Below are positions 3,758-40,903 of a stretch of DNA of 42,271 nucleotides, in pieces. Source of the stretch: a virus (taxonomy: Duplodnaviria > Heunggongvirae > Uroviricota > Caudoviricetes); the IMG/VR virus record IMGVR_UViG_2718218308_000003, positions 1-42,271 of that record; one strand, 5' to 3'. The first letter of the stretch is position 1. Each line of letters opens with the position of its first letter. The translations under genes and the position numbers were made by a program. Below the pieces are notes generated by a model. It was given only the letters and a program-made list of their open reading frames with translations. It had not been told where the DNA came from and made no database searches.

Positions 3758-3803
3758 GGTGCCGATAATAGGAGTCGAACCTACGACCTTCGCATTACGA
3801 ATT
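3758..3803 (-). repeat. Prophage attachment-site repeat (distal end): 46-bp partial copy of the thrW 3' end
   Basis: TGGTGCCGATAATAGGAGTCGAACCTACGACCTTCGCATTACGAAT is identical to 40828-40873. The match stops at the anticodon region, as expected for a tRNA att core. Confidence 0.8.
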
Positions 3804-4375
3804 ATAAGAATCCGCTTCTAATTCAAAGCATTACCCCATCAACACTGCGCTCACACGTCCCACCACATCAAAACATGTAAAGCCTTACAAGCCATTGCGA
3901 GGCCTTATGTGTCTCAGTTTTGTCCCACCTCATATTGCTTCAAAAGATGATATACCTGATAACAAACGACAATATAGACATATTGATGAAAGAATTCTTC
4001 TCCAGAGCATCAAAAAACGTTTAAATAATGTAGCAGTGATCGTCAAGGTTGCCAGTAACAATAGGCTTTCTGTTATACGTACTACAGATAGATGATGTTT
4101 AAATATTGTTAAAAGTTTCTAAAGTTATATATAAATCACTTTACTGAATGGTTTACATATTAATTAACACATATATTAATAAAGACCATAATAATTAAAT
4201 GCTTGCACATCCTGGTTGTATTTTTCGCAGTTCCACAGCCACCCTGATACCATTTTATTTAAAACCGACATACTAAATAGCTTCGCAAAATAGTAGATCA
4301 CGTAAAAGGAACTCAGCCCGGATTGAGCGCTCTGATCAATCGACAAATATCCCAAACCACCAACCGGACTGAGCA

Positions 4376-5407
4376 ATGCCGATCATAGCAGCAACTCCTG
4401 ATGAAGAACGACAACTGATGCGCAAAGAAACCCAGCAAACTCATGATAAGAACCATGTCCGACAACTTGTCGCTATGCTGATGCTACATCAGGGAATGAC
4501 CGTCACCGACGTTGCCAGACTGCTCTGCGCTGCACGCTCTTCCGTCGGCAAATGGATAAACTGGTTTACCTTGCATGTCGCTGAAGGATTAAAAAGCCTT
4601 AGGCCCGGACGTGCCCTACGCTGGCCGGTCGCCGATATTCTTCATATTTTGCTACTGTTGGTACAGCGCTCCCCGAAGGATTTTGGTTGGCTGCGCTCAC
4701 GCTGGAGCACAGAACTGCTGGCACTCGTCGTCAACCGACTTTTTGACATGACGCTGCATCGTACCGCGCTGCACAGATACCTAAAACAGGCAGATATAGT
4801 CTGGCGCAGAGCCGCGCCAACGCTGAAAATCAAAGACCCGCACTATGATGAAAAGCACCTTGCTATTGAGCAGGCGCTGACTCAGGAGCAGACGAAACAT
4901 CCTGTGTTTTATCAGGATGAAGTCGACATCGACCTGAATACGAAAATCGGCGTGGACTGGATGCCCAAAGGGCAACAGAAACGCATCGCTACGCCGGGAC
5001 AGAACCTGAAGCATTATCTGGCTGGCGCACTGCACTCAGGTACGGGACGGGTTCACTACGTCAGTGGCAGCAGCAAAAGTTCTGATTTATTTATCAGTCT
5101 GTTAGAGGCATTACGGCGTAGATATCGGCGGGCGAAAACCATCACACTGGTGGCGGATAACTACATCATCCATAAAGGCCGTAAAGTGGAGCGATGGCTG
5201 GAAGAAAACCCGAAGTTCCGGTTGCTGTTCCTGCCGACGTATTCACCGTGGCTGAATCCGATAGAGCAACTTTGGTTATCGTTACACAAGACCATAACGC
5301 GAAATCATCAGTGCCGGTATATGTGGCAGATACTGAAACAGGTAACGCAGTTTATGAATGCTGCTTCACCGTTTCCGGGTAAGATTCAGTTTGAATCTCA
5401 GCCCTGA
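4376..5407 (+). CDS. IS630-family transposase (DDE), apparently full length at 343 aa
   Basis: The translation has an N-terminal HTH followed by a DDE region with the typical ending (YSPWLNPIEQLW). The length equals that of the IS630 transposase as I recall it. The terminal inverted repeats of the element could not be resolved by eye. Confidence 0.8.
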   Translation: MPIIAATPDEERQLMRKETQQTHDKNHVRQLVAMLMLHQGMTVTDVARLLCAARSSVGKWINWFTLHVAEGLKSLRPGRALRWPVADILHILLLLVQRSPKDFGWLRSRWSTELLALVVNRLFDMTLHRTALHRYLKQADIVWRRAAPTLKIKDPHYDEKHLAIEQALTQEQTKHPVFYQDEVDIDLNTKIGVDWMPKGQQKRIATPGQNLKHYLAGALHSGTGRVHYVSGSSKSSDLFISLLEALRRRYRRAKTITLVADNYIIHKGRKVERWLEENPKFRLLFLPTYSPWLNPIEQLWLSLHKTITRNHQCRYMWQILKQVTQFMNAASPFPGKIQFESQP

Positions 5408-5579
5408 CATTCATTCTTTACCGACGTTCCATTAGCCCAAATCTGAGTATATAACCTCAATTCAACTGACTAAATTTAACACAATATCAATGACAAATGT
5501 CTTTACCATTGGTACATACAATTGCAAAATCACCATCTCTAAGCAATAAGACTACGCATATTAAAGTGAGTTATATTAA

Positions 5580-6728
5580 ATGTTTGAAATTGATAGCTTG
5601 TTATTAATAACATCCGTGATAATATTGTCATTATTGGCTGTAAAATTATTTGATGAAATTTCTCCTATACAACTTGTCGATCATGGAAGAAATAATCAGA
5701 TAGATGGAATGAGAGGATTCTTAGCCATCTTCGTACTTATTCATCATGCCGCTATTTGGCATGGCTACTTATTAACTGGGGTATGGAAAACTCCGTCATC
5801 AAACTTATTAACAAATTTAGGCCAAGTTGGTGTCTCATTCTTTTTCATGATCACCGGATATCTATTTTTTTCGAAGATCCGCTCAAGTGACCAGGATTGG
5901 GTAAGACTATATATATCGAGATTTCTGCGATTAACTCCTATGTTTATTGTAAGTTTATGTTTAGTTCTTCTTGTTATAGGTTTTAAATCAAGATGGAGCG
6001 TACATGTCTCCCCTGCCTCTCTTATTGTGTCACTCATGAGATGGGCACCATTCACCGCATTAGGGATGCCAAATATTAACGGTGTTAAGGACTCATTCAC
6101 TATCAATGCAGCTGTAACATGGACCCTCGTTTACGAATGGTTTTTTTATTTTTCATTACCAGTTATAGCTGCACTCTTCAAAAGAAGAGTCAGCATCCAC
6201 ATGATTATAATAAGTGTTTTAGTTCTAGTGATTTTCTTATGTTACCCATCAAAAAAAATACATGTTATTTCATTTTTATTTGGACTGTTAGCCTCTTATT
6301 CAAATAATTATGTACAAAGAGTTGCTAAAGCTAAAATAACGCCTATTATGATAATTGCATTACTAAGTTACGAAATGATATATTTTCCTACAACCTACGC
6401 TCCACTCCCTCTCATAATTTGCGGTATTTGCTTTATACTTATCGCATCAGGCTGTGATTTTTATGGTATATTGAGATTAAATTTAACAAGAAAACTTGGT
6501 GAAACAACATATAGTATTTATCTTTTACATGGAGTATTCCTTTATTGTGTAATGACATGGTTCATCCCTAGTAATTATTCTAATTATTTTTTTATCATGT
6601 TAATAAGCATTACTGCTTTTTGCGTCACACTTATATCATGCATAACCTTTAAATTAATTGAACTACCTTTCATTAATATAACAAAACAAACCGCTATGAA
6701 AACCAGGGGCATAATAAAAAACACTTAG
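5580..6728 (+). CDS. Acyltransferase family 3 integral membrane protein (O-antigen/LPS acetylase, Oac/OafA-like); likely lysogenic-conversion gene
   Basis: 382-aa, very hydrophobic multi-pass protein with the N-terminal acyltransferase-3 signature (GMRGFLAIFVLIHH...). AT-rich compared with neighbouring phage genes. It sits at the prophage end opposite int, where serotype-conversion genes lie in SfV/Sf6-type phages. Confidence 0.75.
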   Translation: MFEIDSLLLITSVIILSLLAVKLFDEISPIQLVDHGRNNQIDGMRGFLAIFVLIHHAAIWHGYLLTGVWKTPSSNLLTNLGQVGVSFFFMITGYLFFSKIRSSDQDWVRLYISRFLRLTPMFIVSLCLVLLVIGFKSRWSVHVSPASLIVSLMRWAPFTALGMPNINGVKDSFTINAAVTWTLVYEWFFYFSLPVIAALFKRRVSIHMIIISVLVLVIFLCYPSKKIHVISFLFGLLASYSNNYVQRVAKAKITPIMIIALLSYEMIYFPTTYAPLPLIICGICFILIASGCDFYGILRLNLTRKLGETTYSIYLLHGVFLYCVMTWFIPSNYSNYFFIMLISITAFCVTLISCITFKLIELPFINITKQTAMKTRGIIKNT

Positions 6729-6773
6729 TAATCAATTGTCACCTAATCAAGAGGTGGTTTATAGATAACAATA

Positions 6774-39423: not shown

Positions 39424-39773
39424 TGGAGCCATACAGCCTCACACTCGATGAGGCCTGTCATTTTCTCAAGATATCCAGACCGACTGCCATTAACTGGATA
39501 CGCACAGGGCGTCTTCAGGCAACACGCAAAGATCCCACTAAGAATAAATCTCCTTACCTCACAACACGACAAGCCTGCATTGCGGCTCTTCAGTCTCCGC
39601 TGCATACTGTCCAGGTGAGCGCGGGTGATGGCATAACAGAGGAAAGAAAATGTCACTCTTCCGCAGAGGTGAAATATGGTACGCCAGTTTCACATTGCCG
39701 AACGGTAAAAGATTTAAACAGTCTCTTGGAACAAAGGACAAAAGGCAGGCGACAGAACTCCATGACAAGCTAA
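39423..39773 (+). CDS. xis: Excisionase (P22 Xis-type), overlapping the int start
   Basis: 116-aa protein with an N-terminal HTH ([28 protein letters not shown]); overlaps int by about 120 bp in another frame, as in P22. Confidence 0.65.
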
Positions 39774-40813
39774 AGGCTGAAGCATGGCGGGTCAGCAAAC
39801 TTGGTGAAATACCTGATATAACGTTCGAGGAAGCGTGTGTCAGGTGGCTTGAAGAGAAAGCACATAAAAAATCACTGGACGATGACAAAAGCCGGATCGG
39901 ATTCTGGCTTCAACATTTCGCAGGAATGCAACTAAGAGACATTACTGAATCAAAAATTTATTCAGCAATGCAGAAAATGACGAACCGGCGTCATGAGGAA
40001 AACTGGAGACTCAGGGCAGAAGCATGCAGAAAAAAAGGGAAACCTGTTCCAGAATACACGCCAAAACCAGCGTCCGTTGCAACGAAGGCTACGCATCTTT
40101 CATTTATAAAGGCCCTACTAAGAGCCGCAGAGCGTGAATGGAAAATGCTGGATAAGGCACCAATTATTAAAGTGCCTCAACCAAAGAATAAACGGATCCG
40201 CTGGCTGGAGCCCCATGAAGCACAAAGGCTGATTGATGAATGTCCGGAGCCATTAAAGTCTGTTGTTGAATTTGCACTGGCAACAGGTTTAAGACGCTCG
40301 AACATCATCAACCTTGAATGGCAACAAATAGATATGCAGCGCCGGGTGGCATGGATAAACCCGGAAGAGAGTAAATCAAACCGCGCAATTGGCGTTGCGC
40401 TGAATGATACTGCATGTCGCGTATTGAAAAAACAAATCGGGAATCATCACCGTTGGGTATTTGTGTACAAGGAAAGCTGTACCAAACCAGACGGAACGAA
40501 AGCGCCAACAGTAAGGAAGATGCGGTATGACGCAAACACAGCCTGGAAAGCGGCGCGGAGACGGGCTGGTATTGATGATTTCAGATTTCACGACTTGAGA
40601 CACACCTGGGCAAGTTGGCTGGTTCAAGCCGGAGTCCCGTTGTCAGTGTTACAGGAAATGGGAGGCTGGGAGTCTATCGAAATGGTTCGTCGATATGCTC
40701 ACCTTGCACCTAATCACCTTACCGAACACGCACGGCAAATAGACTCGATCCTGAACCCATCGGTCCCAAATTTGTCCCAGTCAAAAAATAAGGAAGGTAC
40801 TAATGATGTGTAA
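39650..40813 (+). CDS. int: Tyrosine integrase, P22-type (thrW-specific)
   Basis: 387-aa protein, [56 protein letters not shown]..., with the C-terminal catalytic [15 protein letters not shown]...RYAHL. Its stop lies 14 bp from thrW. Confidence 0.9.
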
Positions 40814-40827
40814 CTTATTGATTTAAA

Positions 40828-40873
40828 TGGTGCCGATAATAGGAGTCGAACCTACGACCTTCGCATTACGAAT
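40828..40873 (-). repeat. Prophage attachment-site repeat (int-proximal) within the 3' half of thrW
   Basis: 46 bp identical to 3758-3803. Confidence 0.8.
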
Positions 40874-40903
40874 GCGCTGCTCTACCAACTGAGCTATATC
40901 GGC
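40828..40903 (-). tRNA. thrW: tRNA-Thr (anticodon CGU)
   Basis: The reverse complement reads GCCGATATAGCTCAGTTGGTAGAGCAGCGCATTCGTAATGCGAAGGTCGTAGGTTCGACTCCTATTATCGGCACCA: cloverleaf-compatible, CGT anticodon in a 7-nt loop, 3' CCA encoded. Confidence 0.9.

Follow-up and report, generated by a model that had tools for sequence, protein, structure and literature searches.

The DNA analysed here, a single stretch of 42,271 bp (the window), carries the 3′ end of the tRNA gene thrW twice, with an integrase gene beside each copy, which raises the question of how many integrative elements share this gene, to which of them the repeats belong and in which order they entered. A search of the whole window with ARAGORN returned a single tRNA-Thr(CGT) gene, at 40828-40903 on the minus strand. 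Its 3′ end, the exact 46-mer TGGTGCCGATAATAGGAGTCGAACCTACGACCTTCGCATTACGAAT, occurs at 3757-3802 and at 40828-40873, and was matched in none of 100 shuffled sequences. The first-pass annotation had described this 46-bp duplication with the correct coordinates for the right copy; the left copy is real, and had been placed one base off, at 3758-3803. The two copies are identical, as had been claimed, and by direct reading the identity grows by two bases (AA) to 48 bp, at 3755-3802 and 40826-40873. This 48-bp block is the one found at 20592-20639 in the attP region of SfV, and the attP of P22 has the same 46-mer; the Shigella flexneri serotype-converting phages SfV, SfII, SfIV, SfI and SfX and, for its integration module, the Salmonella phage P22 all share the 46-bp attP/attB core in thrW beside proA. 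A repeat arising by chance or artefact was rejected because the sequence is this known attP core of SfV and P22 and turns up again in hundreds of genomes. The starts of the two copies lie 37,071 bp apart, and the repeats are the attR and attL of one prophage of that size with an SfV/P22-type integrase. The features of the window are as follows, with strand in brackets where one applies.

1-908 (-), partial IS5-family (IS903-type) element running off the left window edge; transposase ORF 1-876 (-) with DDE_Tnp_1_5, DDE_Tnp_1 and NCBIfam NF033579
909-969 (-), remnant of an antA/AntB antirepressor gene, about 20 codons, placed by its offset from the intact S40 island (L003, antA at 17370-18170)
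1047-1244 (-), AlpA-family regulator, 65 aa; the same 65-aa gene in relatives matches PF05930 (Phage_AlpA) and HTH_17, and is an AlpA-family or helix-turn-helix regulator in RefSeq
1450-2247 (-), conserved island ORF, 265 aa; exact protein in 3185 blocks of the collection, after the integrase in every context read
2376-3590 (-), P4-family tyrosine integrase, 404 aa, full-length; Arm-DNA-bind_3 (PF13356), Phage_int_M (PF22022), Phage_integrase (PF00589)
3591-3643, arm-type repeats of the island attachment site: tandem AAATACCCCCAA and AAGTACCCCCAA plus one inverted copy abutting the int start
3755-3802 (-), displaced thrW 3′ fragment, tRNA positions 31-76 plus 2 nt; core of the phage attR, its 3′-terminal end being the tRNA-side core of the island
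3803-3927, phage attP-derived arm on the attR side; 3755-3927 is 96% identical to SfV 20639-20467
4376-5407 (+), IS630-family transposase in the phage cargo region; DDE_3 (Pfam), transpos_IS630 (NCBIfam)
5580-6728 (+), Acyltransferase_3 protein (PF01757) in a low-GC stretch, sitting where SfV has gtrA-gtrB-gtrV
7008-25586 (-), late region, by Pfam: tail-fibre assembly protein, tail fibre, Mu-like baseplate and tail, HK97-like head, terminase, HNH endonuclease
35132-35806 (+), cI-type repressor, 224 aa, Peptidase_S24, of the same length as SfV cI
39423-39773 (+), excisionase (xis), HTH_17, within a block 98.9% identical to SfV
39650-40813 (+), P22/SfV-type integrase, 387 aa; 98% identical to SfV Int and 89% to P22 Int over all 387 aa
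40828-40903 (-), intact thrW, tRNA-Thr(CGT); its 3′ 46 nt (40828-40873) form the core of the phage attL
41018-42271 (-), proA, host flank; Aldedh domain, named proA in every matching E. coli genome

Both ends of the prophage match the attP region of SfV, and the same attR-side arm follows the repeat in 212 E. coli genomes. The P22-type int and xis genes adjoin the intact tRNA, as had been reported, with the end of int only 14 bp from the tRNA 3′ end. The prophage size of 37,071 bp compares with 37,074 bp for SfV, and most of the interior matches SfV at 88-99% identity, the stretch 8104-25077 reaching 97.9% identity to SfV 16974-1 over 16,974 bp. The SfV-type structural module (HK97-like head, Mu-like contractile tail) is present, and the ORFs for capsid, sheath, tape measure, portal and large terminase have the same lengths as in SfV. 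Int and xis stand where SfV-type phages have them, at one end of the prophage, and the cargo is placed like the O-antigen-modification locus that those phages carry at the opposite end. The prophage differs from SfV in several early and lysis-region segments, which have been replaced, and in its cargo, where the IS630-family transposase, for which an inverted-repeat search found no terminal inverted repeats, and an oacB-like acyltransferase take the place of gtrA-gtrB-gtrV. The acyltransferase, around which the GC content falls at 0.32-0.39, shares 72% identity with OacB of Shigella phage Sf101 and is probably an O-antigen O-acetyltransferase. Judged on these likenesses, the element is an SfV-like temperate myovirus with a P22-type integrase, and it looks intact.

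The second element lies to the left of the displaced thrW copy, and about 2.85 kb of it is visible, comprising int, one ORF, alpA and some 20 codons of antA. Its int begins 166 bp away from the displaced copy and shares the strand of the tRNA, with the arm repeats between them, which bears out the earlier description of a P4-type integrase next to that copy in the tRNA-then-int orientation. The motif RTACCCCCAA occurs three times in the window, always at the arm repeats, where 0.12 occurrences would be expected in the window. The integrase aligns with P4 Int from end to end at 42% identity, the catalytic motifs HGFR and RxxY included, and it is as long as the annotated integrases in genomes that carry only the island. 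The first-pass annotation had considered that it might prove an inactive remnant; with its full 404 aa and all its domains, it reads instead as an intact P4-family enzyme. The 265-aa ORF had no matches in Pfam, NCBIfam or PADLOC. On its other side the island is cut inside antA by the insertion sequence, whose terminal sequence GGCTTTGTTGAATAAATCGA ends at 908, an end that we take to be of the IS903 type, and the match to intact E. coli islands begins at 906-909. An exact scan of genome contigs for the junction gave no match, this insertion was absent from the many contexts returned by exact-protein matches to the acyltransferase, to the 265/267-aa ORF and to the P4-type Int, and none of the complete E. 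coli genomes covered positions 1-4400 to at least 80%.

Full-length relatives give a fuller picture of this island. Islands of this kind normally abut thrW. The intact one of strain S40 measures about 14.5 kb, and its far end consists of AATGGTGC-GATAATAGGA, after which come tandem ATACCCCCAA-type repeats. In the relatives the far repeat is an imperfect 8+10-bp block with a one-base gap, the distal AATGGTGCGATAATAGGA being accompanied by tandem ATACCCCCAA repeats, and a tandem pair of arm repeats matching that of the window stands at the far end of the island in S40 and ARS-C101. Ungapped searches found no third long repeat in a full-length stacked relative, and the window itself holds neither a third thrW fragment nor the short distal repeat of the island. 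Comparison of the junctions showed that the two elements use different parts of the gene, the island integrating at the extreme thrW 3′ end through a short imperfect core and the phage through the 46-bp block.

The relatives carry int, alpA, antA, Icd-like and DUF4222 genes, a 601-aa D5-type primase, ProQ and PerC and have no structural genes. In this they resemble the Gram-negative PICIs (PMC6092414), elements of 12-15 kb with int, alpA and a replication module and without structural or lysis genes; perC and transcription in a single direction are further traits in common. Int, AlpA, primase and the size of about 14.5 kb were all seen in the full-length relatives; in the window the cut at 908 falls short of the replication module. 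A gene for packaging or for capsid redirection was not identified, and the window keeps only int, one ORF and alpA of the island. The PICIs described by Fillol-Salom et al. 2018 (PMC6092414) include one in Cedecea with the core TCCTATTATC and one in Dickeya at proA, and the 10-bp block GATAATAGGA of the island is the listed Cedecea core; the eight E. coli PICI sites given there do not include thrW. The likeness to satellite P4 lies in the integrase family, the AlpA-type regulator and the 12-bp tandem arm repeats, accompanied by an inverted copy where int begins, the layout annotated in the P4 record being mirrored by 3591-3643 of the window. P4 has psu, delta, sid, epsilon and a 777-aa alpha gene, which the full-length relatives lack: Psu, Ogr_Delta, Sid and Phage_ASH had no matches in them, and the window holds only int and alpA of the P4-like set. 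A P4-like satellite as defined for SatelliteFinder (PMC10085698) combines an integrase with Psu, Delta, Sid, AlpA, Ash/epsilon and an alpha primase, and the window island lies outside that definition. A genuine P4-like satellite with those genes does occur at the same position by the same phage (element L007), with an Int only 63% identical to that of the window island. By gene content the full-length relatives are PICI-like and not P4/CP4-like. The earlier view of two elements at thrW, a prophage with a P22/SfV integrase and an element with a P4-family integrase, stands, and its assignment of the latter to the P4/CP4 islands does not, given the PICI-like gene content of its relatives.

The arrangement was then placed in a set of 5426 complete E. 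coli genomes. The stacked order of the window was found in 212 of them (about 4%), for example in ETEC L7_E1373 from proB to paoD. Removing 3803-40873 in silico produced a junction that exists naturally, in island-only form, in 551 of the 5426 genomes, where the island int lies directly beside an intact thrW; over 1830 bp the excised junction was 100% identical to that of strain S40. The stacked arrangement is ordinary and an instance of a known phenomenon, with 125 tandem arrays at tRNA genes recorded in Islander (PMC4383910). That study asks of each member of an array an integrase and a tRNA fragment of its own; the phage has both, and the window island shows the integrase, the distal fragment AATGGTGC-GATAATAGGA being seen in its relatives. 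The SfI-SfX tandem lysogen at thrW (PMC3306764) likewise consists of two integrase elements head to tail, with a displaced tRNA fragment between them and the later element at the intact tRNA, whereas in the window the two integrases are unrelated to each other and the elements occupy different portions of the gene.

Because the two copies of the repeat are identical, the sequence does not reveal which element arrived first. On the comparative sequence evidence it is nevertheless very likely that the island came first, that the phage later entered the intact tRNA and that the IS903-type element cut the island last. The proposal that the island occupied thrW first was indeed plausible, in view of the S40-type junction at 100% and of the SfI/SfX precedent, in which SfI, entering an SfX lysogen, was shown by experiment to integrate at the SfX attL, the one next to the tRNA (PMC3306764); it is not provable, the repeats being identical and the 46-bp fragment also holding the target of the island. 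In the opposite course of events the phage would have come first and the P4-family Int would then have used the thrW 3′ terminus inside the phage attR, giving the same final order. A late island could in principle enter there, because the 46-bp fragment holds its 3′-terminal target, that is, the whole block (AATGGTGC, GATAATAGGA) common to island and thrW. Moreover, lysogens are common, with a P22-type int adjoining thrW-proA in 1211 genomes, and the same phage occurs without the island. We consider this course unlikely all the same, since the island-only state is common and matched by the excised junction, the later phage took the intact tRNA in the experiments cited, and the one clear case of an island arriving in a lysogen, ARS-C101, has it in the intact tRNA, proximal to proA. 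That reverse order is rare, with one full match and about five partial ones against 212; a chimeric query on the distal end of S40, run as a test for it, matched no genome at a coverage of at least 80%, ARS-C101 being uncovered thereby. Island first is thus the likeliest order, although not proven. The repeats, the identities of the two elements, their junctions, the genome counts and the arm sites are observed directly; the arrival order, the points of crossover and the enzyme activities are inferred.

With the island as first occupant, events at the locus may be pictured as follows. The P22-type Int would have recombined the phage attP with thrW inside the 46-bp block, whose first base, tRNA position 31, lies beside the anticodon loop. 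Integration would have regenerated an intact tRNA and moved the old 3′ end 37 kb away, where it still stands directly before the P4-family integrase at the head of a PICI-like satellite island of about 14.5 kb. The island Int would act at the very 3′ end of this gene, through a core that is far shorter and imperfect. Later the IS903-type element would have cut the island. Acting on the two repeats, Int and Xis would free a phage of precisely 37,071 bp and recreate the junction of island and thrW, and the island could leave only if its own far repeat persists beyond the IS, outside the window.

The first-pass annotation had further expected that both elements could recombine with either repeat and give hybrid excision products. 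This expectation is unsupported because the two 46-bp repeats flank the phage alone and the arm sites of the island adjoin the left copy only; the 8+10-bp far repeat known from its relatives is absent from the window. These facts also tell against the stack as a functional unit in which the island would be a satellite of the adjacent phage, with joint or hybrid excision or packaging. The full-length relatives do have satellite hallmarks (int, alpA, a primase, no structural genes, about 14.5 kb), and the phage is present in 212 of 763 genomes with the island and in 999 of 4663 without it, slightly above independence with kinship ignored. Yet the IS cuts the island in the window, the island stands alone in 551 genomes, and the same phage has other neighbours or none, being found with an identical acyltransferase alone at thrW and beside the true P4-like satellite in other genomes. 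Phages with varied neighbours and lone islands fit an independent use of a shared hot spot, and we give a functional unit hardly any credence. It is likewise very improbable that a PICI-like satellite and an SfV-like phage would share thrW functionally, with induction, in situ replication or read-through activating or co-packaging the satellite.

The 46-bp repeats are to be read as the attachment sites of the phage itself, a point of little weight beyond annotation. In practice the oacB-like prophage gene may matter for the prediction of O-antigen serotype. PICI attachment sites have been described as never used by prophages (PMC6092414), and at the level of the gene the locus departs from this, with SfV-like prophages at thrW beside the island in 212 genomes. 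The rule that satellites use prophage-free sites holds here only for the exact crossover position and not for the whole tRNA gene; functional sharing, if true, would break it. The gene thrW is a multi-tenant hot spot, where SfV-like phages, PICI-like islands and P4-like satellites settle through different parts of the gene.

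Two integrative elements are stacked on thrW, as the first-pass annotation had recognised, and this is confirmed. The features framing them, including the single tRNA gene that ARAGORN found in the window, are:

1-908, IS5-family element, presumably IS903-type, which cuts the island after an antA remnant
1450-2247, minus strand, 265-aa ORF of no detectable family
2376-3590, minus strand, full-length P4-family integrase with arm-binding, central and catalytic domains
4376-5407, plus strand, IS630-family transposase
5580-6728, plus strand, oacB-like O-acyltransferase
40828-40903, minus strand, tRNA-Thr(CGT), thrW
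41018-42271, proA, beyond thrW

The 46-mer of the thrW 3' end occurs exactly twice in the whole window, at 3757-3802 (one base off the 3758-3803 first assigned) and 40828-40873, and had no match in 100 dinucleotide-preserving shuffles. The copies lie 37,071 bp apart and, by direct reading, remain identical for 2 bases beyond the 3' end of the tRNA, so that they share 48 bp. Each starts next to the anticodon loop, at position 31 of the tRNA, a layout called "anticodon-centred" in Islander terms (PMC4383910). The region 3755-3927 is 96% identical to that of SfV attP, 8104-25077 matches the entire SfV structural module (97.9% over 16,974 bp) and 36445-40873 is 98.9% identical to the SfV stretch that runs from the early-left arm across int to attP; matches to SfII, SfIV and SfI were similar. 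The SfV homology at the two ends and over most of the interior, together with the presence of the same 46-mer in P22 attP, identifies the repeats as the attL and attR of an SfV-like phage. Its 387-aa integrase shares 98% identity with the SfV enzyme and 89% with that of P22. The large terminase, portal, capsid, sheath, tape measure, cI and int ORFs equal those of SfV in length, so that the prophage looks intact.

Beside attR, where SfV has gtrA-gtrB-gtrV, the prophage carries instead the transposase followed by the acyltransferase, which shows 72% identity to OacB of phage Sf101 (GC about 0.32-0.39) and may change O-antigen serotype. The exact acyltransferase protein was present on 23 contigs read, and the cargo module at about 97% identity in two complete E. 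coli genomes. Another segment without SfV homology, beside the lysis genes, holds two overlapping ORFs (27856-28158 and 28155-28895, plus strand; 100 and 246 aa; GC 0.36) that run opposite to the late genes; neither matched anything in Pfam or PADLOC, and the pair may be an uncharacterised moron.

To the left of the prophage, the island integrase shares 42% identity with P4 Int along the full length of the protein. Between it and the 46-bp repeat are 12-bp repeats in tandem, AAATACCCCCAA and AAGTACCCCCAA, and an inverted copy lies at the int start, making 3 copies against 0.12 expected and none elsewhere in the window, an arrangement similar to that of the annotated arm repeats of P4. Int is followed by the conserved 265-aa ORF, a regulator of the AlpA family and a remnant of antA about 20 codons long. 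The 265-aa ORF directly followed the integrase in 20 of the 20 contexts read, and 3185 blocks of the collection list the identical sequence.

An intact relative of about 14.5 kb in E. coli S40 encodes int, the 265-aa ORF, alpA, antA, an Icd-like gene, DUF4222, a 601-aa D5-type primase, ProQ, PerC and cargo, and its far end adjoins a LysR pseudogene and paoD. The island had been labelled P4-type, and its integrase is of the P4 family; since int, alpA and primase are present and a gene-content check of the island relatives found no psu, delta, sid or epsilon, its predicted content is PICI-like rather than P4-like under published definitions (PMC10085698, PMC6092414). At its far end the S40 island has AATGGTGC-GATAATAGGA and then tandem ATACCCCCAA-type repeats. 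The one-base gap of this distal block accompanies the island in E. coli ARS-C101, where the flank is a different one, which suggests, by inference, a crossover at the extreme 3' terminus of the tRNA gene. The S40 host flank left of the distal repeat (6380-6402 of that locus, CTCTTTGATTTTAATGG) resembles phage sequence downstream of int (window 40810-40828, CTTATTGATTTAAATGG); it could be left over from an earlier P22-type attachment arm, or could simply be native thrW downstream sequence.

Variants that share the 265-aa ORF exactly and keep the gene order as far as PerC occupy glyU, tRNA-Gly(CCC), beside xdh genes in two E. coli genomes (CP122620 and CP122648, loci L019 and L021; int 8658-9872). 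Their Int is 66% identical to that of the thrW island with the last ~75 residues identical, suggesting retargeting by integrase module swapping. Another form of stacking with this island occurs in GCA_024675215.1 (2846-11215 of locus L030): immediately upstream of the island's 404-aa integrase is the end of a CP4-type island, with a CbtA/CbeA toxin-antitoxin pair, DUF4942 and, on the opposite strand, a 439-aa P4-type integrase.

We surveyed 5426 complete E. coli genomes, using as the phage-excised query window 2800-3802 joined in silico to 40874-41700:

island int adjoining intact thrW-proA (phage-excised junction), 551 genomes
island int, 46-bp copy, phage arm (stacked junction), 212 genomes
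P22/SfV-type int adjoining intact thrW-proA, 1211 genomes

This comparison with single-element genomes, the check first proposed, gave the island-only junction in 551/5426 and the stacked one in 212/5426. In raw counts that ignore phylogeny, the phage was slightly more frequent with the island (212/763) than without (999/4663), which fits independent use of a hot spot. ETEC L7_E1373 has the full stacked order (proB, proA, thrW, prophage, repeat, island, paoD), and the same phage with identical acyltransferase also occurs alone at thrW. Elsewhere (GCA_039553735.1, 1-8013 of locus L007) this phage adjoins a genuine P4-like satellite, so that thrW is home to at least three kinds of element. That satellite carries alpha primase, epsilon, Ash, AlpA, sid-like, delta and Psu genes, and its 401-aa Int is 63% identical to the thrW-island Int. 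In ARS-C101 (16514-32096 of its locus) the order is reversed, thrW being followed by the island, a short repeat and an SfV-like prophage, and about five more genomes gave partial matches; one of these, SW07164, has this order with a different island beside thrW and a decayed lambdoid remnant with the P22-type int. Among these two loci, one has three stacked integrase-bearing remnants broken by IS3, IS5 and IS1.

That the island came first and the phage later, as initially proposed, is the likeliest order. The phage needs the anticodon region, offered only by the intact gene, and experiments have shown that where SfX is already resident, a later SfI integrates at the attL nearer the tRNA (PMC3306764). 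Moreover, the island-only state is common and equals the excised junction exactly (100% with S40 over all 1830 bases), and the island, when clearly the later arrival, sits proximal to proA, as in ARS-C101. The order is nevertheless unproven, because the two repeats do not differ and the island's target, too, lies within the 46-bp fragment. Hybrid excision products, also envisaged, are unsupported, since the 46-bp repeats bracket the phage alone, the island arm sites adjoin only the left copy, no distal site of the island was found in the window and an IS cuts the island.

Tandem arrays at tRNA genes are already catalogued, with 125 in Islander (PMC4383910), laboratory work has produced tandem phages at thrW (PMC3306764), and about 4% of complete E. 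coli genomes have this exact stacked architecture. The architecture was correctly recognised and its mechanism is ordinary. The twist is only a mild one: PICI attachment sites have been described as never used by prophages (PMC6092414), yet in this window one tRNA gene serves both a PICI-like island and a prophage, at different sub-sites.
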